This document shows, piece by piece, positions 12,123 to 54,230 of a stretch of DNA of 64,000 nucleotides (within the stretch, counting starts at the first letter, position 1; every line of letters begins with the position of its first letter). The DNA is from Nemertoderma westbladi. Lineage: Eukaryota; Animalia; Xenacoelomorpha. The notes below the pieces were generated by a model. The model searched no databases, was not told the DNA's origin, and was given only the letters and a program-made list of their open reading frames with translations. The DNA is taken from positions 1-64,000 of the forward strand of contig JAUCBJ010008930.1 in assembly GCA_032718475.1 (NCBI GenBank), written 5' to 3'. The translations under genes and the position numbers were made by a program.

Positions 12123-12313
12123 CTTTTAAATATTTGTATGGATTTCTCCTTGTGAAAGCGAAGTATATTCCAGGAAGAACTATAAATGTATGTGTTATGA
12201 ATCCAGCAAAGACTGTCACCACATAGAAACTTAAATCATTGACTACAGCCTCAAGGTCATCAACTTCCAGTATCTTACCTGCTATCAGAAATACAATTCC
12301 AAATGGCATATAC
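12123..12313 (-). CDS. SLC1 transporter internal exon (end of TM5, TM6)
   Basis: YMPFGIVFLIAGKILEVDDL..YVVTVFAGFITHTFIVLPGIYFAFTRRNPYKYLK. Acceptor ttttcag ends at 12314, donor gt at 12122; 191 bp, phase 1 joins the 4969 exon. Confidence 0.92.
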
Positions 12314-12400
12314 CTGAAAATGAGAACAGTATTATTTATAATTATAGTTATATTGTGGTTGGTTACCAGCATAGCAGTTAGTACATATATTTACACCCAA

Positions 12401-14314
12401 TAAATTGGAGAGATACGCCTATTCCTACTATCGGAAGAGACGGTAACAATACCTGCAATATCCTACTGTAAAGTTTGTAAATCAAATCATAAATCCGACC
12501 TTCTCACCAAAACAGTAAACCCCAAGTAAGCGAATATATTGCAGTATCGATCTCTTTTAACCGGTGAGGCAGAAAACAGTCTACGAGCAGACAAACTTCG
12601 ATAAAACAAAATCCCGCGCAGCGAATCCTAAAATCAGGCTGACTCACTGACGGACTAAGGGGCTCGTATACTTTGCCGCGGTGTGATTTATATGGTTGGG
12701 CAAAGGGACGCTAGCTAGGTACAGAGGCAGATATTTGGAGATGTCTAACTAGCGAGCAAAGTGCAGTAAGGACGAAAGTTAATTTTATATATTTTGAGGT
12801 GTAAATAATTTCTAACGCGCGTGTGTTAATTCTGAACGGTCAAAAGCAGTTTTGCTCCTTCACATATATAATTACTGGGTACGGTGTGCATTTTACGAAT
12901 ATTCTAATTTGTAACTTGTAGGTCCAATACTCACGAATGGTAAGGTTCCTTCCCCTCTTGCGTATTTCCAGGACTCAAATTCAGGCATAAGGTTAATACT
13001 ACGCCCAGAATTCGGCAATTTCAGGTACCAGGTCCCTGATACTAAGAAGAGATGTGTTAGTTTACTACTGTAGGCGTACGGGTACTAATAGCTATCCTGG
13101 CTCCTATCTAGAATTTTAGTCACCCAGGTAGTCCGGGTAACTTCCTATTAGGGCGTTGGCGGGGACACGGTAGATGTTAGTATATCCCTGATAGCCTCAA
13201 TTTATTTGCGCCTAGCGTAAACTGCCCTACCGCCTGAACGGTACAATCCCAATTCAGGTGAAAACACAGCAACCCCCTAGCCTACAAGTTCTGATGTAAC
13301 GGACACCGTTGTACGGCAAATAGTCGCACACACACCTGTACTTAGCAAGAGTTAAGCGTACAGTTTGCTGCACCCTAACCAATGTGTATGCCTTGTACCG
13401 GTGTGCCTACGTCCTATCTGCGTACTAGTATCTGCTCTCTCTCCCTCTCCCCCGTAGGAATATGAAGGTCTACTGCGGTTTTTCCCTGAATCAAGACAGT
13501 ACAGTCCCTATGATGTAATTTTGGGCTCACAGCGTGTCACTACGTCTACCTTTGATCTTTTGGTCTTACACTTAGGTAGCAAGGATCGAACGCTGTCTAA
13601 CCTTTCAGGCGATGGGCGAATAACGCTAGATGGTATTGCGGGTTGTCTCTCGTCTACATTCCCGTGATGTTCCCGTTCATTGCTGTGGCCCGATCTCTAG
13701 CTGGCCATCCTGTCCCTGAGTTTGTTCACCGTAGTGAAACCATATTAAAACAGATAGAAAGGCTGAGAGATGTGACTAGTATTTCTGACTTTATTACAAA
13801 ACATATAATAACTATTATACAATAAACAATGTAATCTGAAATAAGACAGAAAGTGAATGATGGAAATTGATTGAATAACTAATGAACGAATCGCACCTTT
13901 ATATACTAAATTTGTGCCGCAATCAATCGAGAAAATTCTCGATTGTTCTATAGATTCTAACAAGGTTTTAAAGATAGCTATTGGTCCAGCTAATATATAA
14001 CTTGCACGACATTGGTTACAATCAAATAACTACAGCCTTATTGGTACAGACAAATGCAATTAATTTGTAGCGGTTAATTTAAATGAGTTGAAATTCTACA
14101 CAAAAAATAATTCGCACTTACTAGGATTTGAACTCGATACCTACTATACTTATAATTTCCAACGCTCTACCAACTGAGCTACTGAACCACTTGACCGATA
14201 GATGCATAATAGATAGAACCAATACGAATGAGAACTCAAAGCAATCTTTACAAAGTTAATTCGAATAAAATAAATTTTTGAAAATCCACGGCATTTAGGG
14301 AATATAATTCTATA
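12401..14314 (-). repeat. 3' LTR of the BEL/Pao element (1914 bp)
   Basis: Near-identical to 29317-31245 from taaattggagag to gggaatataattctata, with scattered substitutions and small indels. Preceded on the sense strand by the short purine-rich ggagcgg. Confidence 0.92.
14102..14188 (-). ncRNA. tRNA-derived Pol III-type unit inside the 3' LTR (not a functional tRNA)
   Basis: Sense GGTTCAGTAGCTCAGTTGGTAGAGC (A box, D-arm) ... GAGTTCAAATCC (B box) ... TTTTTT. Acceptor and T stems do not pair. Confidence 0.65.
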
Positions 14315-14339
14315 CCGCTCCATGAAAACAGGATATTAT

Positions 14340-15120: not shown

Positions 15121-15197
15121 ATAAGAAAGGCTCACGAGTCTTCCGTCCACCCTTGCCCTCCCTTTTATCGCTTAGTTGATCGAGCCCTGCCGCGTCC

Positions 15198-18100
15198 TCA
15201 AAAACTGCGCACAGGTGACTTTGCTCGCGATATGGGACTAATGGGGCGAGTCACTGGTTTACTTGGGACGTTGAGAGACGGTGCAACTATTTCCTCGCAA
15301 ATTCGTCTATTTGGCATCCCAAAACCTCGACCAATTCCTCGTGACCGATCAGTCGTCGCTACAGTTGGTAGAACGTCTGGGAACGCGTGAGAAGCGGACG
15401 ACGCAGACCCAAGAGTAGCTTGCGCCCCCTGTTGATCAGCTGGTGTATGTCCCGATCCTCCTACCGGTTCTCTTGGAAGTGATACCGTATCCCGAGTAAC
15501 TCGAATAGTCGGCTCAACTCCCTTGCGTTCTTCTACATTAATAATTTTCTTCAATTGTTGGCCCACCTTCTGGACCCGTATGATCCTACCCTGCCCGTCC
15601 TCCCGAGGGTGACGTGCAGACGGCGCAACCGGAGTGGCTGATATATTCGTCGCCTCTAGGACCTCTTCTTCCTCGAATACGCTCGCTCGTATACGTTTAT
15701 GGTAAAACGCGGCTCGGTACGCCCATGCGACGGTTAACCAAGCTCCTTTATTCCGCTTTTCGGTTCGGAAACGATCAAATTCACCATACGTGATACGATT
15801 TACGACTTTCTGAAAATTCCACGTGTTCTTGTTATCCGGGTGAATCTGTAACAGATACTCGCGCACTACTCGGAATCCGCTGTCGTGGGGCAAAATATCG
15901 ACAACCTCGATAAGTTCGTCATATTGGGGCATAGCGGAGATATATCCTTCCGACATCATCGTCTGGGGATTTACCGCCCAAAATCCGAGATGCGCTCTCA
16001 TCGGAAACCGTCTTCTTTGTGCCGATACATGTTCGTCGGCTAAATCTTCCCACTCATCAAATAACTTCCTCACGAGTTTTACAGATTCGTGTTCATAAGG
16101 TATGTCTCTCAGTTGGCATTCAGATGCTCGATGTCCCTTTATATTGCAGTAAGTACATTGAGCCATAAATCTCCAGCAAGTATAAAAGGTATGAGACCCT
16201 TGATCCCCACACCATCCACAGATTAGCTGAGTCGTAGTAATGTGCTTTCCACTGCACTTTGCCATATGATGTCCAGCGACGCCACATTTACTACACATCG
16301 TATTAGCAGGGTACCACACTCGTTCGTATATAAGATCTCCAATCGGTCGAGCGCTTCCTCCCATACTATAATCGTAATCATCTGGGTCTATGGGTTGGTA
16401 GGTTTCTGAAGGTTGTATACAAACTATAGCATCTGTTGCTTCAAGTTGTCGAATCTCCGTCTGAGATTTCTTCGGGAGGTTCCTTTCTATCTCAAGAAGT
16501 TCCTCTAAAGGATCGTCGGCGATCGTAGTAGTTACGTTGAAATCATCACCGAGGTGACCGATAGGCGCGCGCGTCTGCCGTGATTCATCCATAATTTCCA
16601 CGATACGTTCTCCTTCATAGGGTAACAATGTAAACATAGATGGTCTTTCGATAAGAGATCCCGCACAGCGAAGATACACGTCTCGAAATATGCTAAATCC
16701 TGCTCGAGTAAAGGCATTACACTGAGCGTCGGAGTTGTAGAAGGGTTCAAGGAATCGTCTAAACACGTCGGTACGAATTCTCCCTTCCATGTAGAACGTA
16801 TGATCTTCTCCGAGACAAAGTGGATGTCTTTTGAGAGTCCGAGACACAATGTCGGCGATTAGGCAAACATTCACTGACGACTCTATCGCTAAATAATATT
16901 GTAAGACCGCTCTTGGAGGTGACGTAATAGCCCAATACACGCATCCTCTCCATTTAAGCTGTGATTCAAACTCACTCATATCTGGAGTATCACCTTCTCC
17001 ATAAGTTTCAATATACTTGTTTCTTTTACCTTCCTTATAATCCCAATTGAATAACAGGTAGGAAATGTATCCAGTTCCAGTCTTCTGAGTATTATACTCA
17101 CGAAAATATCCCTGTTCTATAGACCACAGAATAAGAGGTCGAGTGTCGACGTATGGTGTCGGTAGTCGGTCATCGCTGTCCGTCATGCCGGCGAAGTCGC
17201 TAATTAAATCCTCCCTTACTCCTGATCCAACCTTTACAACAGTTTTATCTAAAATCATGTTTCTTACCATCTTCGGTAACATTCTAGCGTCAATATTACA
17301 AGCTTGGTCCATCTTCTTTACTATATCGGTGATAAGATGGTGTCGCTTTGTATTCGCTGGAGGTATCGGCATTCGTTTGTCGCTCCTCTGTCTACTGAAA
17401 ACGTGCAGGACTCCGTCCGCCGCTCTAATCTGTATAGTCTTAGAAGTCAAACTCTGCTGATGACTGCCGCCCTCGTTATCGTAAAACATATAACCGTTTT
17501 CCTGAAACGATCTAAACGTCCTAGTCCATTCATCCAACAATTCTTCCGAAGGTTGCCAAATCTTCTCTATATCCTTATCCTCATCGAAACGAATAACCTT
17601 ACCTCGCCAATCTGCGGCAATATCTGTATCCGACTCGAAGGTTCCGATTCCAATCCATAAACGAATCGTCTTGGTTAGATATCCTTTCAGATTACTCGGA
17701 GCTATGTCGGCACCAGCTCTATCCAGTTCCTTAAAATCTTGGATATGAGGTGGAACGTTGTTCACGACCTTTTGAGTAATATGTCTACGCAAATCATATA
17801 TCTTACTCATATCGCTGAAAACAACTGCAGGAAGAAACTCCAAGTTTGAAATGATTTCTGGATGATCCACGATGGGTATTTCGTACGTCGTATCCTGTCG
17901 GACTGGTATACTAATAGGGAAATTGAGTGTCGTACTCAATGGTTTCGTAGCTGAAGTACTATACGGTTGCATTTCTCTTGGCCTCTCCGGGGATGCAATC
18001 TGTAGTCTCTGAATAACGTTTTGAGCGAAGTTTATGCTCTCGAAAACTTCCGGTGTCATCTCCTTAGCTGAAGTTTGATCGTGTGACGTCCAATGGCAAG

Positions 18101-18890
18101 GTAGGCTCGCGAGTCTTCCACCCCATTCTTCCATCTCACCTTTCTCGAAAGCCTTGTAGGCTCTGTATAGGCTAAGAGCTTCTTTCTTTTCGCGGGTTGA
18201 CTGATTCGCCTCGTCCAGCGTAAGTTCAAATACATCGGGTTCAACAACCTTAGGTGGGTAAATGACAGTTTCTCCCGCCTTTGGTCCGGTCATAGCAAAT
18301 GAATGATATGGATTCGATAAAGGATACCCTCCTTCCTGGTAGCGTAGTTGTTGATGATTCGAACACCTCGCCAATATCGGTTCGGGATTTTCCTTATTCA
18401 AACGCATCGGAATCGCATTTCGTTGTTCGCGCATACAAGAACCGCATTGATAATAAAGTTTATAAACTGAAAATGCTTCCTTGGTTTCTCTATCGTCCCC
18501 TCGAGTTCGTCTGTAAAGATGCATTCCATCGAATTCATCGCGTACCGCGGGCATAGGTTCGTGCGCCTTTAGGTATTGCATGGTATGATACAAACGACTA
18601 ATTTCAGTATCGGGGTCTTCGCTAATGTCTCCCGTATCACACAAAGCATCGTACGGGTAAAGTTCGTTGAAGGTTTGGCGCAAACTTTCGATTCTTTCGT
18701 TCAATGCGTTTTGCCTTCTCTTTAATACATTCGAGTCATATTTAGTTCTCGCGAGTTTCGCTGTACTTTCCGATAATTCTTTTATACCAAATATAGTGTA
18801 ATCCTTGGCTCCAAATCTTTCGAATGGCGCTGCTGCCTCCTCTTGGATATCATATCCCCATCTCGGCTCTCCTTGTATCCCTTTCTCCAT
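15198..18890 (-). CDS. Retrotransposon ORF2, 1230 aa: putative DEDDy (WRN/EXD/mut-7-like) 3'-5' exonuclease domain plus 3 CCHC zinc knuckles
   Basis: Uninterrupted ORF. ExoI-like FYDNE, then IQI; ExoII-like LPKMVRNMILDKTVVKVGSGVRED; YVD; GxGxISYLLF; ExoIII-like W..PP...LQYYLAIES (~16870-17500). Knuckles CSKCGVAGHHMAKC, CGWCGDQGSHTFYTC, CTYCNIKGHRASEC (~16115-16296). No signal peptide or TM segment seen. Confidence 0.75.
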   Translation of the reverse strand: MEKGIQGEPRWGYDIQEEAAAPFERFGAKDYTIFGIKELSESTAKLARTKYDSNVLKRRQNALNERIESLRQTFNELYPYDALCDTGDISEDPDTEISRLYHTMQYLKAHEPMPAVRDEFDGMHLYRRTRGDDRETKEAFSVYKLYYQCGSCMREQRNAIPMRLNKENPEPILARCSNHQQLRYQEGGYPLSNPYHSFAMTGPKAGETVIYPPKVVEPDVFELTLDEANQSTREKKEALSLYRAYKAFEKGEMEEWGGRLASLPCHWTSHDQTSAKEMTPEVFESINFAQNVIQRLQIASPERPREMQPYSTSATKPLSTTLNFPISIPVRQDTTYEIPIVDHPEIISNLEFLPAVVFSDMSKIYDLRRHITQKVVNNVPPHIQDFKELDRAGADIAPSNLKGYLTKTIRLWIGIGTFESDTDIAADWRGKVIRFDEDKDIEKIWQPSEELLDEWTRTFRSFQENGYMFYDNEGGSHQQSLTSKTIQIRAADGVLHVFSRQRSDKRMPIPPANTKRHHLITDIVKKMDQACNIDARMLPKMVRNMILDKTVVKVGSGVREDLISDFAGMTDSDDRLPTPYVDTRPLILWSIEQGYFREYNTQKTGTGYISYLLFNWDYKEGKRNKYIETYGEGDTPDMSEFESQLKWRGCVYWAITSPPRAVLQYYLAIESSVNVCLIADIVSRTLKRHPLCLGEDHTFYMEGRIRTDVFRRFLEPFYNSDAQCNAFTRAGFSIFRDVYLRCAGSLIERPSMFTLLPYEGERIVEIMDESRQTRAPIGHLGDDFNVTTTIADDPLEELLEIERNLPKKSQTEIRQLEATDAIVCIQPSETYQPIDPDDYDYSMGGSARPIGDLIYERVWYPANTMCSKCGVAGHHMAKCSGKHITTTQLICGWCGDQGSHTFYTCWRFMAQCTYCNIKGHRASECQLRDIPYEHESVKLVRKLFDEWEDLADEHVSAQRRRFPMRAHLGFWAVNPQTMMSEGYISAMPQYDELIEVVDILPHDSGFRVVREYLLQIHPDNKNTWNFQKVVNRITYGEFDRFRTEKRNKGAWLTVAWAYRAAFYHKRIRASVFEEEEVLEATNISATPVAPSARHPREDGQGRIIRVQKVGQQLKKIINVEERKGVEPTIRVTRDTVSLPREPVGGSGHTPADQQGAQATLGSASSASHAFPDVLPTVATTDRSRGIGRGFGMPNRRICEEIVAPSLNVPSKPVTRPISPISRAKSPVRSF

Positions 18891-18920
18891 AATTAGGGTG
18901 TAGTTACATAATCATTACTA

Positions 18921-18951
18921 CTAGAGGGAATACAACAGAGTTTGTAGTTAG
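18921..18951 (-). promoter_or_regulatory. Candidate 3' splice acceptor for a subgenomic ORF2 mRNA
   Basis: Sense CTAAC branch point (18951-18947), then ctctgttgtattccctctAG ending at 18921, 30 nt upstream of the ORF2 ATG. Confidence 0.55.
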
Positions 18952-19548
18952 TTGTGAGGAGACGTGAGAGTTTCGTCTGCCCTTTGGGCTCGACAACGCT
19001 CTAACCTCCTACCCATAGCCTAAGATCTAGGGTTTCTTTAATGACACGCTGCTTCTTATCTAAAATTTTTTGCCGAAGTAAAAACGAATTTGGGCTAAAC
19101 TGGCCGTGAGTCTAAAATACTCACCTTTTGATCCCAAACTATTATCAGAAAATAAGCAATCAAGAATTAGTAATAAATATAGGGGAGTCTATTTTGACGT
19201 AACTTATTGAAACAAGACTGTGTAAAATTTAATTAAAATTTTAAGAAAGGCTCGCAAGTCTTCCTCTCTTGTTTCTCTAATTTTAAGTTCCACCCGACTG
19301 TACCCTGGAATCTATTCACTGGAGAAAATTTTAAAAATTTTTCAAATCCAAATGGATTGTCTAAAATTTCGAAAATGTCTCAATATTGTGAGTTCCAAGT
19401 AGAATTCCATTTCTTATACCTACAAATCCCGCTCCTATGTGACACATAAGGGTACTACCCTCAATGTTCACATAATATGACAATGGAATTCTACCGCTGT
19501 CCTTACTACGGTGTACAGGTACGTGGAAATCTATTTGTAAACTCCTAA

Positions 19549-22500
19549 TTATTTACTAGTATTAGGTGGAGATTTGTAATCTCCAGACTCGTTACGAGTC
19601 TCTTCAAGGAGTACGAGACGTTGAGTCGGTCTGTCTACTGTACGACCGTCAATTGTTCGTACCGTCACAGTTCTTGTCACTCCATCCATAGATGGATGTG
19701 TGGCTAAAATGACACCTGTTATCCAGAAGCGTCTTTTTAGATTCACTTCTGCCAACAGCACGTGATCTCCCGGCTTTAATGCGTGGGTGTTATTATACCA
19801 GTTTGTTCTGGCAGAAATAGAGGGCAAATAATGGTTTTGCCATATTTCCCAGAATTTGTTAGCCAGTAGTTGCGTGATTTTCCACGCTTTTCTCCCGTAA
19901 CTATCGCTTTCCATTGGAGTGGAAATCGGCGTTAATGTCGTCGGTGCCTGCATAAGCAGGTGTGCCGGTGTTAAAGCAAACTGGGATTGTTTGTCATCGG
20001 GTACTAATACTATTGGTCTAGTATTTAGTATTGCCTCGATTTCAACAAACAATGTTGTCAGTTGGTCGTCTGTTAATATGTGGTTTACTGGAATGACCTT
20101 TGCCATGGCCGTTTTGATAGATCTAATCAATCTCTCCCAGACTCCGCCTCTCCAAGGACTATCTGGAGGATTAAACTTCCAAACAATCTTGTGAGGTTGC
20201 AGTTCGTTCGAGATTTGATCATGATCTAATTTCTTAAAGGCTCTAGCAATCTCATTCCGAGCACCAACGAAGTTTGTCCCTTGGTCTGAGTACAAGCATT
20301 TTACTAGTCCGCGTCTAGCGATAAATCGCCGCAGTGCTAGTATAAACGCGTTGGTGGAAAGATCCATCACACGTTCAATATGAACTGCCCTACTGGACAT
20401 ACATGTGAAAATCAGTCCCCAGCGTTTTACTAGTATACGTCCACGTTTCGTATGTATGGGACCAAAGCAATCAATTCCAGTCTCTGTAAAAGGTGGTCTG
20501 AATGCTTGAAGTCGTGCTTGTGGTAGTTCACTCATTTCTTGGGTACCTATTCTAGAATGTACCTTTTTACAAATAATACACGTACGTGTCACTGAACTTA
20601 ATGCTTTACTGGGTCTAATCAATACAAATCTAGTACGTAAGTAGGAAAGACAGTGGTGTCTTCCAGCGTGTTTCAGATGTAGATGTGCATCCAGTATCAT
20701 TGCACGTTGTAGTTCGTGATGTTGCGGTATTATTATTGGGTACCTAAAGTTTGTGTTAAAGTCAATGTTTTGAAGCCGAGATTTATGACAAATTAAGCCA
20801 TTATAAATTATCGGACTCCAACTCAGTATTGGTGACGACTTGATTGGTTGACCTTGATGTATAGATGTGAATTCGCGCGCGAAATATCTCAGTTGGTAAT
20901 GGCGAATTAATTTAATCTCACACCTGTCAATCTCAGCCAATGTAAGTCGACGTGTAAAGTCACGTTTGCCTTTAACGTATTGTACAAAACGTACAATCCA
21001 CGCTAATTTTCGGCAAGCGTTTGACCAAGAGTCTGTTAAGTTTACGATACGGTCGACGTAAGTATTTGTGACGTCATCAGGTAAGTCAATGGAGAACTTG
21101 GAAGGTTTTGAATTACTAGAAGGGCCCACGGGTCCGCCGGTAAGTATTCCCTTGTTGACTGTTGATCCGTCCGGGTCTACAAGTAATTTGTCCTTCTTTG
21201 TCCTCTTACCTTGATTGTTGGTACTTTGTAAGTCGATCGTTAATGGTGGTTTGAACTCTATGGGGTCAGCAGGTTTCGGTAAACTTATTTTTCTGCCGAC
21301 ATTAATCCCAGGTCTCACCGTAGGTTGTAAGTTCGGTATGTCTCTTGAGCGCAAAGTAACACCTGTATTTACATTAGCGTAGGTACTACCCACATCTGTA
21401 ATACATGAGGTTTCACCGTGCTTATGGTTGCTCAAGTGTGTCAAAATCGGTAGTTTGTCAATACAAGGCCGCTCCAATAGGGAAACTGCGGCTTTATCGT
21501 TAGTCAATACATTACTAGTGTCTAGTCGACTGTCTAGTAATGTGTCTGGCGATACGTCTGGTAACGTATCTAGTTGTTTGTCAATAGAAGGCCGCTCCAA
21601 TAGAGAAACTGTGGCTTTACTGTTTGTCAGTGTGTTACTAGCGTCTGGTGGAACATTTTGTGATATGTCTGGCAAAATGTCTGGTTGACTGTCTAGTAAC
21701 GTGTCTGGTTGACTGTCTGGTAACGTGTCTGGTTGACCGTCTGGCGATATGTCTGGTGTAGAAAGGCTCGCAAGTCTTCCTCTCTTGACCTTTGAAGTTA
21801 TATCCTTCCATTTCGCCTTCGGTTTTTTCTTGAGTTTTGTCGCCGTTGTCTTTTTCTTTGTCTTCCCCTTTTTTGGTTTCTTGATTTCGGCGTCCTTGGG
21901 AATGGTGTTGGACTTGTTGTCGTATAACGGAGGCCAATCTTGTGTCGATTTCTGCAAGAACTGGGGTCCGTGTTGCCAAAACTCTTTGTTCTCCGGTTTA
22001 CAGAATTCCTCAGGCATCATTCCTCGCGACGCAATATCAGCTGGGTTTTGTGGTCCGGGACAATGTCGCCAATCCTCTTTTATCGAATGGTCTAGAATCT
22101 CTGCGCGACGGTTAGCTACGAATGTCTTGAATTCGAGTGTGTCGTTGTTTATGTAAAATAAAACCAACGTCGCGTCAGTCCAATAAAATATCTGTAAACT
22201 CGACTGTAGTTCTGTCTGTATGAGGTTCACGATGGTGGTTGACAGGGTCGCGGCTTGTAGCTCGGCTCGTGGTGTCGTCATATACTTAGTAGGCATGGTC
22301 TTAGCCTTAGAAGTAATGAGCGAAACATCGAACTCGTCCGATTCTACTTGTCTGCGCAAATACGCTGCCACACCAAAACCGTTGTCACTGGCGTCAGAAA
22401 AACAGTGTAGTTCCAAGTTGTCAGGAAATGTACTCTGTAATGGAAAGTAAACCCTGGGTATGAAATAATCCTCTAGTGAAGATAATTCCGCCTCCCAGGT

Positions 22501-25500
22501 CTTCCATAAGTCCACTTGGTCTGATGAGATCGGCTCGTCCCACGTTAGTCCATCCTTCCATATACTGTGCATATAAATGCGAGCTTGCAGTATCACTGGA
22601 CTGATGAATCCTAACGGGTCGAACAATCGGCTCAACTTTGACAAGCATGATCTCTTGGTCAGTGTGTTTCCTTGACTGTCCAGTCTCACCTTCACTCGAA
22701 AGTTGTCTGTGTTTGGGTCCCAAAAGAGCCCCAACACCTTAGTCGTCGGTAGTGGTTCGAACTCTAGGTCTATGTCACCACCTCCACGCTCAGTAGTTCC
22801 GAATGAGTCAACTAATTCGGCACTGTTTGAGGCGAATTTGGTGAGGTTAAAACCTCCGCCCGCCAAGCAGTCCCGTAATTGATGTGCTACTGTTGTAGCA
22901 CGTTCTACTGTGTCGCAACTCTGTAATCCGTCATCAACGTAAAAGTCACGTTCTACAATTCTAATTATCTCTGGGTCATACAGATGTTTCTGATCTCTAG
23001 CGGCTTGCTTCAAGGCGTACATCGTACAATTCGGGCTGTCTCTGGCACCGAAAACGCGAACTTGCATTTGGTAAGTCGCTGGTGGTAGACTTAAGTCCCC
23101 TTCCGGATACCAGAGAAACCGCAAACTGTCTCTGTCTCGCTCTAACGCTTTTACTTGGTGAAACATCGCTTCAACGTCGCAAGTAAAGGCTACTTGACGC
23201 TGACGGAAGCGCATAATCACCCCCATAAGATAATTATTCATGTTCGGTCCATCCATCAACTCACTATTGAGGGACATTCCCTCAAACAGAGCCGCACAGT
23301 CATTGACTACGCGTACTTTATCTGGTTTGTCGGGATGTCTCACATAGTGATGTGGCAAGTAGTACGTCTGGTCTGTCACTCGCTCCGGGTTAGTCATTCG
23401 GATAGCGTATCCCTTTGTCAAATACGTCTCCATCTGAGTGTTATACTGCAGATGGGCTTTCTCGTCCTTTAATAGACGTTGTCGGATTGAGTGTAGACGT
23501 CTTAAAGCCAGTGGGTAGTTGTTTATAAGTTTAGGACTTTGGCTACGCCATAACATACCCACCTCGTAATGTCCGTCCTCCGTCTGTCGGATAGTATCCT
23601 CCATGATCTTTAGAGATTGTTTCTCCTGTTCCGACATACAAGGGTCGTAGCTACCAGGTTCAGCTGTATCTTGTTCTAACCACCTGATAGTCTTCTCCGT
23701 TAATTCTTTGTCCAAGGCGGCTTGTTCCAACTGATGAATTTTCAACGCGTCATCGTCGATATCGACGGGCACTGTTGAGGTTATTGGGGTAGGTAGACTC
23801 GCAAGCCTATCATCTGTCGTCGATGGAATCTCTAGCTGATTCGTCTTCCCCCCAATTTCTAAACTCACCTTGTGGGTTAGCTGCTCCTTGTGACTTATCA
23901 TACTAGTTACACGTCTGTCATGTTTTGTCGACTGTAGTGTAGTATGGTTCACGTCGTGTGAAAAGGAATGAATTGAGTTTGTAGTCAATAAACTACATGT
24001 ACTCTGTACGTCGTCTTCCTCGTCACTTACGTCTAGTGTGCGCACAGGCGCTCGAGTATACCACCCTATCGGCGTTCTGCAGGCGTATGCGTTTCCTGCT
24101 ACAACTGCCGATGGTCTGGTTTCCCACACCTGGTGTAGGTTGAATTGGTCCGTCCCGATCAGCATTGCTACCGATCTATAATTGACAGGACATTCGGGCA
24201 CACCAAGGTGTCTGAAATACTTACGGTCCTCCAAAGATTGTTCCGGCACTGGACCTAGTAGGTTACTAAAGTCCTTCGTGGCCGCAAAGGTTAGATCTCT
24301 AAAGGGCAACAAAGACCTCTCCCTCTCGCTGTGCTGCGATTTTGGAAGAAGAGAGTCTAAGTCCAACTTAACTCGTGTCACTGGTATTGCACGCTGTCCG
24401 TGCATACTACTTACTGTATAACTGACGTGCTTACCTTGTCTAAGATCTGTTACGACGTCAGCTATCTTTTCATCTACGTAACTGTGAGATGAGGCTGAGT
24501 CTAGAATCGCGTAAATCCTCTTACTCCCTTTTGTGCCAGTAACTTTAATCGGGATTACACTGAATCCCTTCAGTTGGTCAGTGGTCAGGAGCGCGATTGA
24601 CGGTTGTTCGTCTCCATTTGAATATTCGTCGTCTTCTGATTCTTCGTCCGACGATCCGGATTGTTCTGAAAAGCAATCCTCTATATGGGTCACGAAAGTC
24701 GGAGTCGTTTTCGATTCCCGTTTTCGGTAAGCCGCATCACATCTCGCTGCTGCTTCCGGGTGTTCCCTGGCGAAGCGTTTCGTCGGCGTGTGGCTGTCTG
24801 TGTGGAGCAGACCGTCGTGGTTGCGTCCACAGGATGGACAAGTGTCGGTATTTGGGCAATCCTTACGGACGTGTCCGTGTCGCGTACACCGCCAACAAGA
24901 GTCCAGTGGCCGTATCTGCAGCCGTCGTTCTTCTGAGTTCAACTCGCGAAATTGTCGACAACCCCGTAACTTGTGACCAATATACCGCTTACCTAAATGT
25001 TCGCAGTATTGGCAGCCGTTGAAGTCGGCGCTGAGTTGCTGTCTCGTCTGTTTCGTCCCAATGGGCGCAGATACTCTATTACCGTCTGAGAATTGTCGTG
25101 ATTCCGTCGGTGTGGCGTAAGTGGCCGTCTTTGTGGATGTTGTCTGGGGTTTTTGTCGGTTTGAAGAGGGCAATGTGATTCCTTCTGCCACGATGTGCTG
25201 GTCGGTATAGTTAGATCGAGTTTCTACTACCGCCTCCCTGGATATTAAAAGGTACACATCTTCTAATTTTAAGAATCCTCCCCGCTCCTCTCGCTGGTAT
25301 TCGACCTTCCTCCACTCCCGACGAAGTCGATGGTGGAGTCGTCCTATGATTTTTAATAGGACTGTAGGGGTATTTCCGTAATCAAGTTGTCCAATTGATC
25401 TTAAGGTAGTGATAGCGTTCTTGATTTCGTCAGCTAGTTTTAGTAAGTCGATGGGTTTAGTGATAGCCCCTCCCTTACAGAGTTCTTCTATTACTGACCT

Positions 25501-28473
25501 GGCCATACTCACTGTACCTCCGTATATCGAAGTCAAACGATCGTACGCTAGTTCGAAAGCGTCTGGTACACCGACGAAAGTCTCCGCCAAACGTTTAGGT
25601 TCTCCTGACAACGTTTGGAGCAGGTAATTGAACTTCTCCCGTGATGTAAAGGCGCACACGGCGATCTGGGATTCGATATAGTCTACGAAGGTATGCCAGT
25701 GTTTTGAGCTACCGGAGAACTTCGGTGGTTGTTGTACCGGCAATCCCTGTCTGGCTGCGAATTTCGCTATCTCCTCGGCAACGTTCAGAGTTTCGCGTCC
25801 TTGGTTGGTAGTCTGGTTGATGTTCTCCCTTCTTGGCGCTTTTCCCTGATACGATGTGGGGTTTGAAGGTACTGGTCTTTGTGGTCCCTTCGGGTGTCTA
25901 TTGTGTTCGAATTCGGAATTTCTCGAACTGTCGGTGTAACCTTCCTCCAGACGTTCCTCAATCCGGGCCAACTTGTTGACAATGTCGGCGAACTGTTGCG
26001 CACCGATCGCGCCCGCTGGTGGTAACGCCTTCTGTGTCGGTGTATTCTGTGGAGGATTGTCTGCAAAGGAGTTGTCTGAACGCTCGCGTTTATATTCATC
26101 GGCCGCCCCCGTTCTAAATACCTCGCGTATCGGGTAATCCGATTCGCTCGAAGTACTACTATCATCTGGATATGGTGGTCGACGTGCTCGCGTCCGTTGC
26201 GTCGTTCGAATTCTAACGGCTCGTTTCGGAACATCGTCCACTGATCTCCGTTGTTCGGTAGGCTCACAAGTCTTCCTCGAAGTCGTAGATTGCGATGTAA
26301 ACTGGTTGAACGGTCGCGTCTCCACTGTTCTCCGTTGTTCGGTAGGCTCACAAGTCTTCCTCGAAGTCGTAGATTGCGATGTAAACTGGTTGAACGGTCG
26401 CGTCTCCACTGTTCTCCGTTGTTCGGTAGGCTCACAAGTCTTCCTCGAAGTCGTAGATTGCGATGTAAACTGGTTGAACGGTCGCGTCTCCACTGTTCTC
26501 CGTTGTTCGGTAGGCTCACAAGTCTTCCTCGAAGTCGTAGATTGCGATGTAAACTGGTTGAACGGTCGCGTCTCCACTGTTCTCCGTTGTTCGGTAGGCT
26601 CACAAGTCTTCCTCGAAGTCGTAGATTGCGATGTAAACTGAACCGGTGGGCGAATGACAGCATTTGAAACAACTGGCCTTGTAGGTCGAAACGTCATTGG
26701 GTAAGCGTAATGTGTAACGGGTTTAGGCGTCAAAGGTGGACTCACCTGTTTTGTCGTCAGTAGCGCAGGTCCGGTCAATAAACTACTACGATCTGTAATC
26801 GGTGGGTTACTTACCTTGACTCTCGGAATAGGCGACGACGTTGCTCTTGGCGGTATAAACTCGTTCGGAATAACAAACCTGTGTTCCGTCGCACCATGGA
26901 TAGGAGAAATATCACTACTACCCGCAATCGAAACAGGTTCCTTAGTCGTAACCGGTGCAAACATATGAGTTACCTGTGGGAATCGTTGACACACGTCTTT
27001 TACTAATTGTCGTTCCCGTCCGGGTGCTCCTACGCTTCCTTCCTTCTTCCGTTCCTGAATTTGGCGATGTCTTACCTCTAACTGGTCCAAATCATGTCCG
27101 TCGCGAGATCTCATCGATCGATCGCGGGCTAGAAGATCCAGATTTTCCTTAGTTTCGGCTAATTCTCTCGCCCTCTTCTCAAGTTCGAAACGAAGTTTAA
27201 CTTCCTTTTCTCGTTGTTCCGTTTGTTGTTGTTGCGCCTCGAACTCTGCTTGTCGTATCGCTTGTTGGGCTTTTATTTGCCGTGTCTTCATCTCGACTCT
27301 GGCTTCCAAAACTACTCTTTGTCGCTCTAACTCTGCCGCAGCCGTTTGTCGCTCTAACTCTGCCGCAGCCGTTTGTCGCTCTAACTCAGCCGCTGCAGCT
27401 GCCGCTGCCGTTTGTCGCTCTAACTCGGCTGTTGCCGTTCGTTGCGCTAACTCGGCCGTTGCCGCTTGTTGGGCAATGTCCAACTCTAACCTTTCCATTT
27501 CGGCCGCTTCGAGTTCGGCTTGTTCCTGCAGATGAGAGATTCTCGCTACATTCGCAACACGTATTTTCTCTTCCTCTACTGCTGTTTGTATCATTAGAAG
27601 TTGAGCTTGTTCTTCTATCTCGTGTTGCTGTCTGTAGAACTGCTGCTGTTGTCGAGCAACTTCTGACGTGACTATACTTCCTTCGCAGATTTCGCTACGA
27701 ATACTTACCAATGATTGATTTAGTATTCCCGGTGCCGATTCGATTTGTGCGAATGAAGTTTCCCTCGTGTATTCCGGCACGGTTTCCAAATCGCCGACGT
27801 CTTCGCCGCACATGCGTAAGTGGTCCGTCAGATGTTTCAATTGTCCATCCAGTCGGTACAATTCCTGTTCTTCCTCGGGTTGTAATAATTCGTCCGAAAC
27901 TGACTCACCTAACAACTGGTCCGCTTGTTCCTGTTGTATCTGTCTAATCGTCGACTTAAACTGAATCAGTTTCTCTCTAGTGATCATTAGTTTCTCGAGG
28001 ATTCTAAGTTGAGTATCCATGTCCTGTCTCTGTCTAGCTAGATCTTGTAGGCCAACTAGATTATCTACGGACTTATATACTTTACTCTGTACTCTAACCT
28101 GGAGGGTGTAGAACTCGAATCGAGACATCGGAGCGGTCAACCCGTCTAATATGCGTTGGCCTTCTCCAATACTCCTGGTTATATGCGCCATGTATCCACC
28201 GACGCTTCTAACCACACTTTCTGTGCTTCCTGCTGAACTTACCAATTCCGTTTCCCTATATCTAGGTTGCGGAACAGTTAGAAAGTCCTCGGTCCTGCCG
28301 TCGCCTCGTACTACGGCATCCGGTACTCCCGTTGGATGTACTGGTGACGCACACGGTGTAGGTTCGGTAGGCTCGCGAGTCTTCCCCTGTGGTTCTTCCG
28401 CTGCTGACTTATCCGCGTCACATGAGTCATAGTCGGTTTGTGTATTCTTCGTATAGTCTTGTTTGTCACTCAT
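19549..28473 (-). CDS. BEL/Pao Gag-Pol polyprotein, 2974 aa
   Basis: DUF1759-type gag (PKFSGSSKHWHTF..EKFNYLLQTLSGEP); three Cys/His knuckles; protease ILDSAS; RT (YLPHH, RVVND, DVEAMFHQV, FGARDSP, FYVDD); RNase H (FSDAS, PRAELQAA, WTDA, NPADIASRG); integrase (H..H..CIIC, GIDCFGP, SDQGTNF, WERLIRSIK). Confidence 0.96.
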   Translation of the reverse strand: MSDKQDYTKNTQTDYDSCDADKSAAEEPQGKTREPTEPTPCASPVHPTGVPDAVVRGDGRTEDFLTVPQPRYRETELVSSAGSTESVVRSVGGYMAHITRSIGEGQRILDGLTAPMSRFEFYTLQVRVQSKVYKSVDNLVGLQDLARQRQDMDTQLRILEKLMITREKLIQFKSTIRQIQQEQADQLLGESVSDELLQPEEEQELYRLDGQLKHLTDHLRMCGEDVGDLETVPEYTRETSFAQIESAPGILNQSLVSIRSEICEGSIVTSEVARQQQQFYRQQHEIEEQAQLLMIQTAVEEEKIRVANVARISHLQEQAELEAAEMERLELDIAQQAATAELAQRTATAELERQTAAAAAAAELERQTAAAELERQTAAAELERQRVVLEARVEMKTRQIKAQQAIRQAEFEAQQQQTEQREKEVKLRFELEKRARELAETKENLDLLARDRSMRSRDGHDLDQLEVRHRQIQERKKEGSVGAPGRERQLVKDVCQRFPQVTHMFAPVTTKEPVSIAGSSDISPIHGATEHRFVIPNEFIPPRATSSPIPRVKVSNPPITDRSSLLTGPALLTTKQVSPPLTPKPVTHYAYPMTFRPTRPVVSNAVIRPPVQFTSQSTTSRKTCEPTEQRRTVETRPFNQFTSQSTTSRKTCEPTEQRRTVETRPFNQFTSQSTTSRKTCEPTEQRRTVETRPFNQFTSQSTTSRKTCEPTEQRRTVETRPFNQFTSQSTTSRKTCEPTEQRRSVDDVPKRAVRIRTTQRTRARRPPYPDDSSTSSESDYPIREVFRTGAADEYKRERSDNSFADNPPQNTPTQKALPPAGAIGAQQFADIVNKLARIEERLEEGYTDSSRNSEFEHNRHPKGPQRPVPSNPTSYQGKAPRRENINQTTNQGRETLNVAEEIAKFAARQGLPVQQPPKFSGSSKHWHTFVDYIESQIAVCAFTSREKFNYLLQTLSGEPKRLAETFVGVPDAFELAYDRLTSIYGGTVSMARSVIEELCKGGAITKPIDLLKLADEIKNAITTLRSIGQLDYGNTPTVLLKIIGRLHHRLRREWRKVEYQREERGGFLKLEDVYLLISREAVVETRSNYTDQHIVAEGITLPSSNRQKPQTTSTKTATYATPTESRQFSDGNRVSAPIGTKQTRQQLSADFNGCQYCEHLGKRYIGHKLRGCRQFRELNSEERRLQIRPLDSCWRCTRHGHVRKDCPNTDTCPSCGRNHDGLLHTDSHTPTKRFAREHPEAAARCDAAYRKRESKTTPTFVTHIEDCFSEQSGSSDEESEDDEYSNGDEQPSIALLTTDQLKGFSVIPIKVTGTKGSKRIYAILDSASSHSYVDEKIADVVTDLRQGKHVSYTVSSMHGQRAIPVTRVKLDLDSLLPKSQHSERERSLLPFRDLTFAATKDFSNLLGPVPEQSLEDRKYFRHLGVPECPVNYRSVAMLIGTDQFNLHQVWETRPSAVVAGNAYACRTPIGWYTRAPVRTLDVSDEEDDVQSTCSLLTTNSIHSFSHDVNHTTLQSTKHDRRVTSMISHKEQLTHKVSLEIGGKTNQLEIPSTTDDRLASLPTPITSTVPVDIDDDALKIHQLEQAALDKELTEKTIRWLEQDTAEPGSYDPCMSEQEKQSLKIMEDTIRQTEDGHYEVGMLWRSQSPKLINNYPLALRRLHSIRQRLLKDEKAHLQYNTQMETYLTKGYAIRMTNPERVTDQTYYLPHHYVRHPDKPDKVRVVNDCAALFEGMSLNSELMDGPNMNNYLMGVIMRFRQRQVAFTCDVEAMFHQVKALERDRDSLRFLWYPEGDLSLPPATYQMQVRVFGARDSPNCTMYALKQAARDQKHLYDPEIIRIVERDFYVDDGLQSCDTVERATTVAHQLRDCLAGGGFNLTKFASNSAELVDSFGTTERGGGDIDLEFEPLPTTKVLGLFWDPNTDNFRVKVRLDSQGNTLTKRSCLSKLSRLFDPLGFISPVILQARIYMHSIWKDGLTWDEPISSDQVDLWKTWEAELSSLEDYFIPRVYFPLQSTFPDNLELHCFSDASDNGFGVAAYLRRQVESDEFDVSLITSKAKTMPTKYMTTPRAELQAATLSTTIVNLIQTELQSSLQIFYWTDATLVLFYINNDTLEFKTFVANRRAEILDHSIKEDWRHCPGPQNPADIASRGMMPEEFCKPENKEFWQHGPQFLQKSTQDWPPLYDNKSNTIPKDAEIKKPKKGKTKKKTTATKLKKKPKAKWKDITSKVKRGRLASLSTPDISPDGQPDTLPDSQPDTLLDSQPDILPDISQNVPPDASNTLTNSKATVSLLERPSIDKQLDTLPDVSPDTLLDSRLDTSNVLTNDKAAVSLLERPCIDKLPILTHLSNHKHGETSCITDVGSTYANVNTGVTLRSRDIPNLQPTVRPGINVGRKISLPKPADPIEFKPPLTIDLQSTNNQGKRTKKDKLLVDPDGSTVNKGILTGGPVGPSSNSKPSKFSIDLPDDVTNTYVDRIVNLTDSWSNACRKLAWIVRFVQYVKGKRDFTRRLTLAEIDRCEIKLIRHYQLRYFAREFTSIHQGQPIKSSPILSWSPIIYNGLICHKSRLQNIDFNTNFRYPIIIPQHHELQRAMILDAHLHLKHAGRHHCLSYLRTRFVLIRPSKALSSVTRTCIICKKVHSRIGTQEMSELPQARLQAFRPPFTETGIDCFGPIHTKRGRILVKRWGLIFTCMSSRAVHIERVMDLSTNAFILALRRFIARRGLVKCLYSDQGTNFVGARNEIARAFKKLDHDQISNELQPHKIVWKFNPPDSPWRGGVWERLIRSIKTAMAKVIPVNHILTDDQLTTLFVEIEAILNTRPIVLVPDDKQSQFALTPAHLLMQAPTTLTPISTPMESDSYGRKAWKITQLLANKFWEIWQNHYLPSISARTNWYNNTHALKPGDHVLLAEVNLKRRFWITGVILATHPSMDGVTRTVTVRTIDGRTVDRPTQRLVLLEETRNESGDYKSPPNTSK
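26238..26641. repeat. 84-bp coding tandem repeat x~4.8 in gag (FTSQSTTSRKTCEPTEQRRTVETRPFNQ)
   Basis: Essentially identical units with period 84 (aggctcacaagtcttcc at 26260, 26344, 26428, 26512, 26596). Confidence 0.97.
27318..27465. repeat. 27-bp coding repeat (AAAELERQT) in the gag coiled-coil
   Basis: gtttgtcgctctaactctgccgcagcc repeated with variants. Confidence 0.85.
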
Positions 28474-28678: not shown

Positions 28679-30827
28679 ACAACAAATAAATCGGATAACG
28701 ATATGCGTTATCAAAAGGTAAATTAAATACAATAATACGGACTAATTCAGCAATGAACAAAGAAATCATACGGAATGCATAAATACTTGAGACAGTGGAA
28801 CCCACAATAATTTTAACTAATACGGTAATGCCTAACTTATTTATGCAACTTTTCGAACTCACCCACTCCAATAATTCTCCAGAAAAACAGATTCCCAGAT
28901 ACAAACCGGACGTGAACCTTTCCGTTTTTAACGTTGCGGACGAAACGCGATTTTCCCAACCAAAGTTGTTGGGTTATCTATCTCCCAAACTTGCTAAACA
29001 CGGTCTTGCTCCCGTTACAGTCTAGAAATGAGTTCTGAATCCTGAAAAACAAAAGAGTTAGGTTTTACTTTACGAAATTTTGTACCGGTACAATATGGTA
29101 TTTAAACCCTTTTTAAACACCGGTATTCAATTCCAAAATATTTTACACGCGGTTCAAATCAAATTTTATTTCAAAAAATTAGCACTTAGCTAATCAAATA
29201 TAAATTTTTACCTCAAAATACAAAATTTTCAAATAACTTTAGTCCTACCGAACCGTAGTTCAGTAAAACATATTCCTACTAAATTAGGAAATATGTTAAA
29301 ATAATCATATTCCTACTAAATTGGAGAGATACGCCTATTCCTACTAATTGGAAGAGACGGTAACAATACCTGCAATATCCTACTGTAAAGTTTGTAAATC
29401 AAATCATAAATCCGACCTTCTCACCAAAACAGTAAACCCCAAGTAAGCGAATATATTGCAGTATCGATCTCTTTTAACCGGTGAGGCAGAAAACAGTCTA
29501 CGAGCAGACAAACTTCGATAAAACAAAATCCCGCGCAGCGAATCCTAAAATCAGGCTGACTCACTGACGGACTAAGGGGCTCGTATACTTTGCCGCGGTG
29601 TGATTTATATGGTTGGGCAAAGGGACGCTAGCTAGGTACAGAGCAGATTTGGAGATGTCTAACTAGCGGGCAAAGCACAGTACGGACTAAGTTAATTTTA
29701 TATATTTTGAGGTGTAAATAATTTCTAACGCGCGTGTGTTAATTCTGAACGGTCAAAAGCAGTTTTGCTCCTTCACATATATAATTACTGGGTACGGTGT
29801 GCATTTTACGAATATTCTAATTTGTAACTTGTAGGTCCAATACTCACGAATGGTAAGGTTCCTTCCCCTCTTGCGTATTTCCAGGACTCAAATTCAGGCA
29901 TAAGGTTAATACTACGCCCAGAATTCGGCAATTTTAGGTACCAGGTCCCTGATACTAAGAAGAGATGTGTTAGTTTACTACTGTAGGCGTACGGGTACTA
30001 ATAGCTATCCTGGCTCCTATCTAGAATTTTAGTCACCCAGGTAGTCCGGGTAACTTCCTATTAGGGCGTTGGCGGGGACACGGTAGATGTTAGTATATCC
30101 CTGATAGCCTCAATTTATTTGCGCCTAGCGTAAACTGCCCTACCGCCTGAATGGTACAATCCCAATTCAGGTGAAAACACAGCAACCCCCTAGCCTACAA
30201 GTTCTGATGTAATGGACACCGTTGTACGGCAAATAGTCGCACACACACCTGTACTTAGCAAGAGTTAAGCGTACAGTTTGCTGCACCCTAACCAATGTGT
30301 ATGCCTTGTACTGGTGTGCCTACGTCCTATCTGCGTACTAGTATCTGCTCTCTCTCCCTCTCCCCCGTAGGAATATGAAGGTCTACTGCGGTTTTTCCCT
30401 GAATCAAGACAGTACAGTCCCTATGATGTAATTTTGGGCTCACAGCGTGTCACTACGTCTACCTTTGATCTTTTGGTCTTACACTTAGGTAGCAAGGATC
30501 GAACGCTGTCTAACCTTTCAGGCGATGGGCGAATAACGCTAGATGGTATTGCGGGTTGTCTCTCGTCTACATTCCCGTGATGTTCCCGTTCATTGCTGTG
30601 GCCCGATCTCTAGCTGGCCATCCTGTCCCTGAGTTTGTTCACCGTAGTGAAACCATATTAAAACAGATAGAAAGGCTGAGAGATGTGACTAGTATTTCTG
30701 ACTTTATTACAAAACATATAATAACTATTATACAATAAACAATGTAATCTGAAATAAGACAGAAAGTGAATGATGGAAATTGATTGAATGTGATTGAGAT
30801 TGAGATAACTAATGAACGAATCGCACC

Positions 30828-30975
30828 TTTATATACTAAATTTGTGCTGCAATCAATCGAGAAAATTCTCGATTGTTCTATGGGTTCTAACAAGGTTTTA
30901 AAGATAGCTTATTGGTCCAGCTAATATATAACTTGCACTACATTGGTTACAATCAAATAACTACAGCCTTATTGG
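30828..30975 (-). promoter_or_regulatory. LTR Pol II promoter: three CCAAT boxes ~30 bp apart, then TATATAAA
   Basis: Plus-strand attgg at 30971, 30942, 30911; tttatata at 30828-30835; sense AATAAA at 30708-30703. Same layout in the 3' LTR. Confidence 0.6.
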
Positions 30976-31032
30976 TACAGACAAATGCAATTAATTTGTA
31001 GCGGTTAATTTAAATGAGTTGAAATTCTGCAC

Positions 31033-31119
31033 AAAAAATAATTCGCACTTACTAGGATTCGAACTCGATACCTACTACACATATAATTTCCAACGCTCTA
31101 CCAACTGAGCTACTGAACC
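31033..31119 (-). ncRNA. tRNA-derived Pol III-type unit inside the 5' LTR
   Basis: Sense TAGCTCAGTTGGTAGAGC (A box), GTTCGAATCC (consensus B box), T6 terminator. Confidence 0.65.
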
Positions 31120-32484
31120 ACTTGACCGATAGATACACAATAAATAGAACCAATACTAATGAGAACTCAAAGCAATCTTTACAAAGTTAATTCGAATAAA
31201 ATAAAATTTTGAAAATCCACGGCATTTAGGGAATATAATTCTATAACAATATTATAATGTAAAATTTCTAAGCAATGACTGGTATGAAAAATGCTGATCT
31301 TCGAACTATGGTTCTGTAATTAAATTTTATTACTTCAACTTTTATACGGATTTACCAGTGAAAGAAACCTAGAATCCATTATCACAATGTAACAGTATCA
31401 ATAACCATATCTATTCTATGTAGATCATAAGAGAGACATCCTTGATTCATATATTATAATTTCCGAGCTGAAATGTTTCAGTGACTATAACTTACAGGCT
31501 TCGTATTATGTACAAACGACTGAGTAGTATATATTAATATTAATGGGTTACCGGTATATAGAACGAGTGTAGACTGGGAGCGAAAATATATTACATACAA
31601 TTTCGAGTAATATAAAATTAACGAGTCCAGTTCGTCTCCCCTCGTGTCATTCGACGCATACCCCCCCCCCCCCCCCCCCTCCACACTTTTCCCTTTACCT
31701 CGTGGTCTTTCTTTAAGCATAACTTCATTTTGGGTCCACCTTGGTGGAGAGGGCCCTTTCCCTGCAAGAAAACCGGCGCGGTAGCTACCAAGATAAAGCG
31801 CCGTCCCAGATTGTGAGAACCCTATACCCATGACCTAGGCACATTGTAGTACATCTCAGCAACTGCCCAGACGATTTTCTTGAAATTTGCACACGACCTG
31901 CGCCGCGGTTCCATATAACCCTATACCAAATTTCAAATAAATTCATAAATTAGGGGCCGAGTGAGAATGTTTTAAAGTTATTAAAAATTAATAAAAACTA
32001 TTAGAAATAAATCTTGCCGATATCTGATTGGGAAGAGCACCGAGGCAGTTCGCTGGTAGAATTAATTCAGAGTTGGCTTGGCAACCACAGTAGGTAGGTT
32101 GAGCTGCTAGTATGCCGTTATCTCAGTAGTAATATGGCCGCCATCTAATGTGTACTATTTATAGACAATTTGATTTAATGATAACCACAGTGTCTGACTA
32201 CTGGGGTTGTTTAATGACGGATGTTATACTATAGCCAGTCTGCCCAGCAATACACATATCCATTATATGAACAATGTTTACAGTTAATCTATTGAATGGG
32301 GCTAATCAGTAGTGGGTAAATGATGCGAATTATAATGGTAGTGGCAAAGCAGTATATATGCACACTCTAGTCCTAAATCAGTCGATCTCAGGAACTGCAG
32401 ATACGATTTTTTTTTAATTTGCACACAATATGAAGGGGGGTACCAGAAATAAGTGTACCAAATTTCAAGTAAATTGATCAATTT

Positions 32485-53835: not shown

Positions 53836-53839
53836 TTAA

Positions 53840-54226: not shown

Positions 54227-54230
54227 TTAA

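Follow-up and report, generated by a model that had tools for sequence, protein, structure and literature searches.

The 64,000-nt window analyzed here (positions 1–64,000 of contig JAUCBJ010008930.1, assembly GCA_032718475.1, from Nemertoderma westbladi; all coordinates below are those of the window) contains an 18,845-bp long terminal repeat (LTR) retroelement of the BEL/Pao type on the minus strand. Its second open reading frame (ORF), ORF2, sits in the position that an envelope (env) gene takes in other elements, and very probably carries a DEDDy exonuclease fold followed by three CCHC zinc knuckles. From 5' to 3' the order is 5' LTR, an 843-nt leader, gag-pol, 658 nt from the gag-pol stop to the start of ORF2, ORF2, 883 nt ending in a purine tract, and 3' LTR:

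29317..31245, minus strand: 5' LTR, 1929 bp, with ends TA...TA instead of TG...CA (blastn against the 3' LTR)
19549..28473, minus strand: gag-pol, a single ORF of 2974 aa, BEL/Pao type
15198..18890, minus strand: ORF2, 1230 aa, env position, open for 1230 codons
14315..14324, minus strand: polypurine-tract-like stretch directly before the 3' LTR
12401..14314, minus strand: 3' LTR, 1914 bp (blastn against the 5' LTR)

The gag-pol product matches Peptidase_A17 (E = 2e-41), DUF1759, DUF5641 and Integrase_H2C2 in Pfam; DSA (the protease motif), YVDD and DAS can be read in it by eye, and its domains follow the Pao-type order of protease, reverse transcriptase (RT), RNase H and integrase. The triple Cys-His box of gag was also recognized by eye as three motifs at about aa 1155–1225 of the gag-pol protein (P0002), the middle one giving a weak zf-CCHC match, and two direct LTRs and a polypurine tract are present as in other BEL/Pao elements. 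Judged from its pol domains and motifs, the element is a member of BEL/Pao (Belpaoviridae). The LTR pair is 97.6% identical (23 mismatches and 6 gaps, blastn). As to the edges of the 3' LTR, junction contigs from the public sequencing runs X2 and X3 stop ~30 nt inside position 12401, and two contigs from run X1 have loose ends at 14314. The flanks give no clean target-site duplication: they read TTGT and TTGG, with one mismatch, and an exact TATTG is obtained only with shifted ends, as read at one insertion plus a few loose ends.

The original prediction for this locus, made from the letters alone, described an intact ORF between pol and the 3' LTR with exonuclease-like motifs, an N-terminal CxxC...CxxH and three zinc knuckles, and all of these were found where it had placed them:

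18354..18446, minus strand: CxxC (aa 149)...CxxH (aa 176), a possible zinc site in a region without homologue and absent from the homologue P0004 described below
16821..17528, minus strand: DEDDy (RNase D/EXD2/WRN-like) exonuclease-like domain, ~aa 455–690, from homology and motifs
16116..16295, minus strand: three CCHC zinc knuckles, aa 866–925, from motif reading and library scans
15891..16088, minus strand: post-knuckle region, ~aa 935–1000, conserved with P0004 and matching no known family

The motifs run FYDNE (aa 469), IQI (486), KVGSG (553), REDL (559), YVD (580), W653 and YYLAIE (665–670), giving a putative catalytic set of D471 and E473 in ExoI, D561 in ExoII (K-x7-D), and Y666 and E670 in ExoIII (W653...Y666-x3-E670). 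Of the knuckles (aa 866, 891 and 912), the second is CX2CX5HX4C and departs from the standard CX2CX4HX4C. The exonuclease-like domain has inserts of ~25 and ~40 aa relative to bacterial references, the second of them common to P0004, and ORF2 has an N-terminal extension of 400 aa without homologue. An envelope protein finds no backing in this ORF; the absence of a transmembrane segment claimed earlier is borne out, the highest 19-residue Kyte-Doolittle mean being 1.38, and no fusogen was matched among Pfam or PDB sequences.

An exhaustive search of 1.84 billion representatives returned three proteins, among which P0004 was the one full homologue; P0003 and P0005 were dropped, as they match through generic knuckles only. 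P0004 is a singleton of 558 aa from a 7460-nt ENA contig (E = 1.4e-5 to ORF2), and it aligns with ORF2 at 27% identity across the exonuclease-like region, an acidic linker, three Cys-His motifs and the post-knuckle region. Its active site is the canonical D-E-D-Y-D (S-V-D-T-E, L-Q-I, K-x7-D, W-x11-Y-x3-D), and every one of the 41 bacterial RNase D/WRN-like domains in the reference set assembled for comparison has this W-x11-Y-x3-D spacing too. Its best match by ESM Atlas features, a lead only, is a Euglenozoa cluster with PF01612 and zf-CCHC (0.87). Shared-word searches over limited length ranges gave no homologue for ORF2 aa 330–1090 among 4163 candidates, none for the exonuclease-only alignment among 1254 (E 10), and P0004 alone among 7376 with the alignment A1. 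Locus searches found no relatives in viral contigs, JGI metagenome contigs, GTDB contigs or phages, and E. coli had no match; alignment A3 gave 16 weak matches in 401 bacterial genomes (E up to 1), which we took as noise.

Several lines of evidence lead us to judge that ORF2 very probably carries the DEDDy fold. Aligned through P0004, ORF2 has the ExoI D-x-E, the ExoII D and the ExoIII Y of the family in order. A profile of ORF2 and P0004 aligned with the 41-reference profile at hhalign probability 58.6 (E = 9.5e-5, score 33.9), while the highest score in 60 column shuffles was 18.5. The top PDB match of the two-sequence profile was the ExoII helix of human EXD2 (6K17, E = 1.0). By ESM Atlas features, ORF2 aa 400–780 scored 0.92–0.93 with 24 of 30 matches in one cluster set, whose top cluster (score 0.92) has PF01612 on 50% of its members, and the Atlas model of P0004 compared with single-domain PF01612 clusters gave TM-scores of 0.73 and 0.70 by target. 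A motif pattern of ExoI, strand, ExoII and ExoIII fits 39 of the 41 references, ORF2, and one of 10,000 shuffles, but in a form loosened after ORF2 had been seen, with longer gaps, W-x11/12-Y and a final D or E; the strict ordered pattern does not match ORF2, and a first version was discarded because it matched 0 of 41 references.

The structure and profile check proposed with the original prediction came out divided, the profile half pointing to RNase D/WRN-like domains and AlphaFold, given one or two sequences, producing no usable fold (pLDDT 29.8 for ORF2 aa 330–850; 31.4 for the P0004 domain with the ORF2 row). A fold search on the latter model (best Z 3.2) is meaningless and does not count against the fold.

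The following results weigh against an active exonuclease of this family. With ORF2 as the master row, hhalign probability drops to 11.9 (E = 0.0025), and the reference profile finds the single sequences by hmmsearch at a weak 0.2–1.2 bits (equalled by one of 500 shuffles), though on the same segment in ORF2 and P0004. The Atlas structure rows all lie below the family-naming bar of the service. Pfam, PHROG and NCBIfam gave no exonuclease match to ORF2 above threshold, the best in NCBIfam being PRK06309 of the DnaQ family (E = 0.026); neither ORF2 nor P0004 reaches the PF01612 gathering score, and Pfam detects the knuckles only. All 41 references, and P0004 too, have an aspartate at ExoIII four residues after the tyrosine; ORF2 has E670 there, confirming the substitution that the original prediction had noticed. 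In the X3 contig over 16714–16968 (depth 7012) a single letter, which could not be placed, departs from the window, so that E670 is probably, not certainly, family-wide. We found no published data on a D-to-E change at ExoIII of the Klenow enzyme. In the Trypanosoma brucei enzyme RND, D230A at the equivalent site leaves trace activity only (PMC7797062), and ORF2 with E670 may therefore be weak or dead. On balance we lean slightly toward a catalytically active ORF2, a prediction that is distinctly less firm than that of the fold.

The same substitution invites the view that ORF2 is a pseudo-nuclease adaptor, in which a weak or dead exonuclease fold and the knuckles would bind element RNA to localize, package or shield it. 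Egalitarian and EXD1 bind RNA through inactive EXD domains and might serve as the model. Besides E670 in place of the invariant aspartate, the 400-aa N-terminal extension without homologue would fit such a role, as would a 23-nt motif that occurs once after pol (19242) and twice after ORF2 (15122 and 14607) and could be a binding site. Inactive DEDD derivatives retaining RNA binding have indeed been discussed for rotifer elements (PMC5408684). Against it, D471, E473, D561 and Y666 are all kept, D-to-E is a conservative exchange, every catalytic residue of the homologue P0004 is canonical, and the three motif copies fold neither alike nor strongly (z = -2.3, -1.3 and -0.2). We regard the adaptor as a possible explanation, to be kept in mind but not the one we would choose. 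The 23-nt motif, apart from being a binding site, may also be a duplicated 3' untranslated region left by a capture event.

How ORF2 behaves across copies of the element bears on whether it does anything at all. Four public runs, from three studies of one organism and one of them possibly the source of the window itself, hold 69–83% of ORF2 words, and a fifth run, from another organism, holds 23%. Run contigs were compared over window positions 11900–25700. In X3, depth was 10,304 and 7,012 over ORF2 and 12,362 over pol, against 39.9 for the junction contig of this insertion; depth is not a copy number, and its plain reading is a family on the order of a hundred copies. The ratio of summed ORF2 depth to pol depth is 0.75 in X2 and 0.77 in X3, so ORF2 travels with pol across many copies, in line with the earlier placement of this ORF inside the LTR pair as a part of the element. 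The family is polymorphic, with 468 differences over 13.8 kb. Of the 41 indels 12 are listed, 11 of them outside coding sequence and one adding 3 nt to pol, so that ORF2 has none among these; among the 10 listed substitutions in ORF2, six are synonymous and three of the remaining four fall in the linker. Both samples are small and were selected by support. At the same time, joints that leave out ~2 kb of ORF2, and with it the entire exonuclease domain, were found at 16606–18731 (X3, depth 491) and 16718–18751 (X1, depth 479), and these weigh against ORF2 being needed in cis.

Such derivatives, at sizeable depth, would also suit a passenger, a gene of the host or of another mobile element that was picked up by template switching and brings no benefit. 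P0004 may be a host gene, and a young element would be intact whatever the selection. However, with identity to the sole homologue down to 27%, the catalytic and knuckle residues have been preserved, and the differences listed show a synonymous excess and no ORF2 indel. The further possibility that ORF2 is an independent nested insertion, raised with the original prediction, finds no support in the flanks: no nested-element ends were found around ORF2, and the 10-mers common to both flanks amount to the repeated motif and one 11-nt match. A mere passenger is improbable in our estimation. An even fainter prospect is that ORF2 serves as a DNA proofreader whose WRN/EXD2-like activity removes mismatches made in reverse transcription of the 18.8-kb genome. 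The element is about twice the published size of BEL/Pao elements, and among solved structures EXD2 comes closest in sequence (E = 1.0). On the other side, a CCHC array speaks for RNA, ORF2 and RT are not joined in one protein, and copies of the family differ visibly, as described above; beyond element size the idea has no support. We consider it very improbable.

The remaining alternative ties ORF2 to replication, and requires attention to how the element might be primed:

30367..30378, minus strand (copy at 13454–13465 in the 3' LTR): 12-nt candidate self-primer, LTR nt 868–879, exact complement of the 12 nt after the 5' LTR
29305..29316, minus strand: primer-binding position, adjoining the 5' LTR and beginning GTAG, not the TGG of a tRNA site

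No TGG site follows the 5' LTR, and thus the tRNA primer-binding site listed by ICTV for the family is missing here, which does not override the pol-based assignment. A TGG...GGAT stretch ~110 nt inside the LTR end was rejected as a tRNA site because both LTRs contain it and it does not adjoin the LTR end. Instead, as in Tf1, the segment following the 5' LTR is complementary to the element's own LTR, here over 12 of 12 nt. Among 14,990 internal 12-mers, the one at this site alone finds a perfect complement in the LTR, and no such match arose in 5000 resampled LTRs. When RNA from LTR nt 868 to the primer-binding site is folded, all 12 nt are paired and the result is a U5-like rod, highly structured and much stabler than 25 shuffles (z = -7.2); when the fold is begun at LTR nt 440, near the upstream TATA box (LTR nt 411), the 12-mer pairs elsewhere. 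The element thus bears a Tf1-like self-priming signature. A core of G-T-A-G-G-A-A-T-A recurs at 29344 and 29279.

A second BEL/Pao-type element lies at 40916–50573 on the plus strand, with 529-bp LTRs ending TG...CA, a 5-bp target-site duplication (ATGTG) and an internal duplication of ~5.56 kb. It has gag and protease ORFs, no RT ORF of at least 150 aa and no ORF2, and carries a 10-nt LTR complement at the primer position with offset 0. Because this neighbour without ORF2 has the 10-nt version, the self-priming signature looks lineage-wide and not tied to ORF2.

A nuclease could nevertheless assist replication, by trimming the 3' end of element RNA to finish the self-made primer or by tidying cDNA ends, an activity that could relate to the TA...TA termini. 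Termini of the form TG...CA are the general rule for LTRs. The missing tRNA site, the 12-nt complement placed exactly at the primer position within the U5-like rod, and the non-canonical termini would all agree with such a helper, and the DEDDy domains of Dada transposases have been proposed to process 3' ends (PMC3706591). On the other hand, RNase H alone makes the Tf1 primer (PMC7175516), the second element has the complement with TG...CA ends and no ORF2, though also without an RT ORF, and the fold from LTR nt 440 pairs the 12-mer elsewhere. A replication helper seems to us rather unlikely. Its most specific form, in which a giant BEL/Pao lineage replaced both tRNA priming and the TG...CA rule and a knuckle-anchored ORF2 exonuclease creates the primer end by shortening the RNA of the element itself as far as the 12-bp duplex, is a long shot; were it true, ORF2 would be a retroelement-encoded primer-maturation enzyme, and maturation of a self-primer a new step in retroelement replication.

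We therefore return to the reading that we tentatively prefer, while holding it with somewhat less than even confidence: ORF2 might be an accessory enzyme, a 3'-5' exoribonuclease that works in trans on the 3' ends of RNAs and weakens host restriction of the element. We commit to it because the nearest functional analogue appears to be trypanosome RND. In this scenario the zinc knuckles would hold on to single-stranded RNA and feed it to a two-metal site formed by D471, E473, D561 and E670, as the trypanosome enzyme suggests, where its 3' end would be trimmed. The targets could, speculatively, be small silencing RNAs or oligo-U tails on element RNA, and ORF2 would perhaps be made from its own spliced or subgenomic RNA and not as part of gag-pol. 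Upstream of the ORF2 start on the minus strand there are splice-like signals (acceptor 19139, donor 19124, acceptor 18918), which suggest a spliced ORF2 RNA, and a 3-codon upstream ORF lies immediately before the ORF2 ATG. Among the listed public runs no RNA run with ORF2 words was found, X5 being a putative RNA run. Action in trans is supported by the existence of the exonuclease-skipping forms at depths 491 and 479, and by the repeated uptake of DEDDy ORFs by unrelated retroelements (PMC5408684).

Three considerations count against this exoribonuclease, in addition to the doubts about the active site. The substitutions come from 40 listed of the 468 differences, selected by support, and their synonymous excess is not a dN/dS test. 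The 2'-O-methyl group on the 3' ends of mature piRNAs makes them resistant to trimming, leaving fewer possible targets. Lastly, the DEDDy ORF3s of bdelloid rotifers show no clear link to copy number (PMC5408684). Should silencing RNAs prove to be what ORF2 trims, a transposon would here encode an enzyme that suppresses small-RNA defence in animals. The high copy number together with natural exonuclease-deleted derivatives makes selection, expression and substrate directly testable.

Other features of the window and of the element may be recorded briefly. Within gag there are five 84-bp tandem repeats (26153–26656, minus strand), and in pol ~300 aa of low-complexity sequence are inserted between RNase H and integrase (~21000–21900, minus strand). 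ARAGORN and Rfam scans found no tRNA genes or Rfam families within the element; near the LTR start, a tRNA-like stretch on which both are silent (31032–31122, minus strand, with a copy in the 3' LTR) has motifs resembling an A box and a B box and, after them, a T run, and is possibly a Pol III promoter or insulator. ORF fragments of LINE-type endonuclease/reverse transcriptase were recognized by eye at 7155–9500, 37140–39581, 58078–58644 and 62557–63384, and ~150-bp satellite-like tandem and inverted arrays and a 17-bp minisatellite lie at 52651–55065, 32498–32967 and 63260–63990.

The claim that this is an undescribed BEL/Pao architecture holds in part. We found no published report of an exonuclease ORF in BEL/Pao, within a search that left many older or subscription papers, supplements and Repbase/GyDB outside, any of which may bear on novelty; the available parts of PMC4131045, PMC3601003, PMC6934838, PMC8556966 and PMC6431247 have nothing on it. 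What does not stand is novelty of the arrangement as such: a DEDDy ORF3 in the env position is already published for the bdelloid elements Juno and Vesta (PMC5408684), along with the kind of functional guesses that accompanied the original prediction, so that its DEDDy assignment and env position survive while part of its interpretation had been anticipated. Known already are DEDDy ORFs after pol in Juno, Vesta and Athena and a DEDDy domain in Dada transposases (PMC5408684, PMC3706591). What appears to be new is the BEL/Pao host, the joining of an exonuclease to a CCHC array and a conserved C-terminal region, the D-E-D-E site, and the fact that the carrier is giant, high in copy number and marked by a self-priming signature. 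Some Cer BEL elements of C. elegans reportedly, in work by Frame et al. in 2001, have an extra exoribonuclease-like 3' region, which, if true, would make the present case less novel. The available parts of PMC554778, PMC3118150, PMC9094657 and PMC2774666 gave no confirmation of such a region.

Compared with other BEL/Pao elements carrying env-like ORFs, such as roo, Tas, Cer7/Cer13 and Atlas (PMC8742986; PMC3118150, PMC554778, PMC9094657, PMC13524379), the element has the same gag-pol type and the same position of the extra ORF, but ORF2 is not a glycoprotein, there is no tRNA-Arg/Gly primer site, and the ends are TA...TA. At 18.8 kb with 1.9-kb LTRs it is about twice the usual maximum, published BEL/Pao elements being 4.2–10 kb with LTRs of 0.2–1.2 kb. 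In Tf1/sushi self-priming, likewise, 11–12 nt after the 5' LTR pair with the element's own LTR, with further pairing flanking (PMC7175516); Tf1, however, belongs to Ty3/gypsy, and its primer is a mapped RNA 5' end, whereas the complement here is read from the sequence alone.

With the PF01612 proteins EXD2, WRN-exo, EXD1, Egalitarian and Nibbler/mut-7, ORF2 shares the K-x7-D and the W...Y spacing of the family, but it is very divergent, with two inserts and no Pfam match, and no one ortholog is established. T. brucei RND, which binds and cuts off the U-tails at the 3' ends of small guide RNAs and, when overexpressed, depletes them, resembles ORF2 in having an RNase D-type exonuclease, a linker and a CCHC knuckle array, but is a host mitochondrial enzyme with four knuckles, canonical DEDD and U-tail specificity, and the likeness is one of layout (PMC7797062). 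Dada DNA transposons also encode a DEDDy exonuclease, but inside the DDE transposase (PMC3706591).

The closest parallel is the ORF3 of Juno and Vesta (also Athena/Terminon), like ORF2 an RNase D-like separate ORF after pol, in the place of env and with no transmembrane segment, for which RNA 3' processing and mut-7-like or EXD1/Maelstrom-like roles were considered (PMC5408684). It did not surface in the search of 1.84 billion representatives, and its acidic set is described as DEED, against D-E-D-E in ORF2. The rotifer families are low-copy and gave no selection signal in that 2017 report, and the repeated capture of DEDDy ORFs by unrelated retroelements has been a puzzle since then. The present case, with its BEL/Pao host, 1230 aa, triple CCHC array, conserved post-knuckle region and long N-terminal part, sets itself apart from Juno and Vesta and extends the pattern to a different LTR superfamily, apparently with an exonuclease of the CCHC-bearing type.

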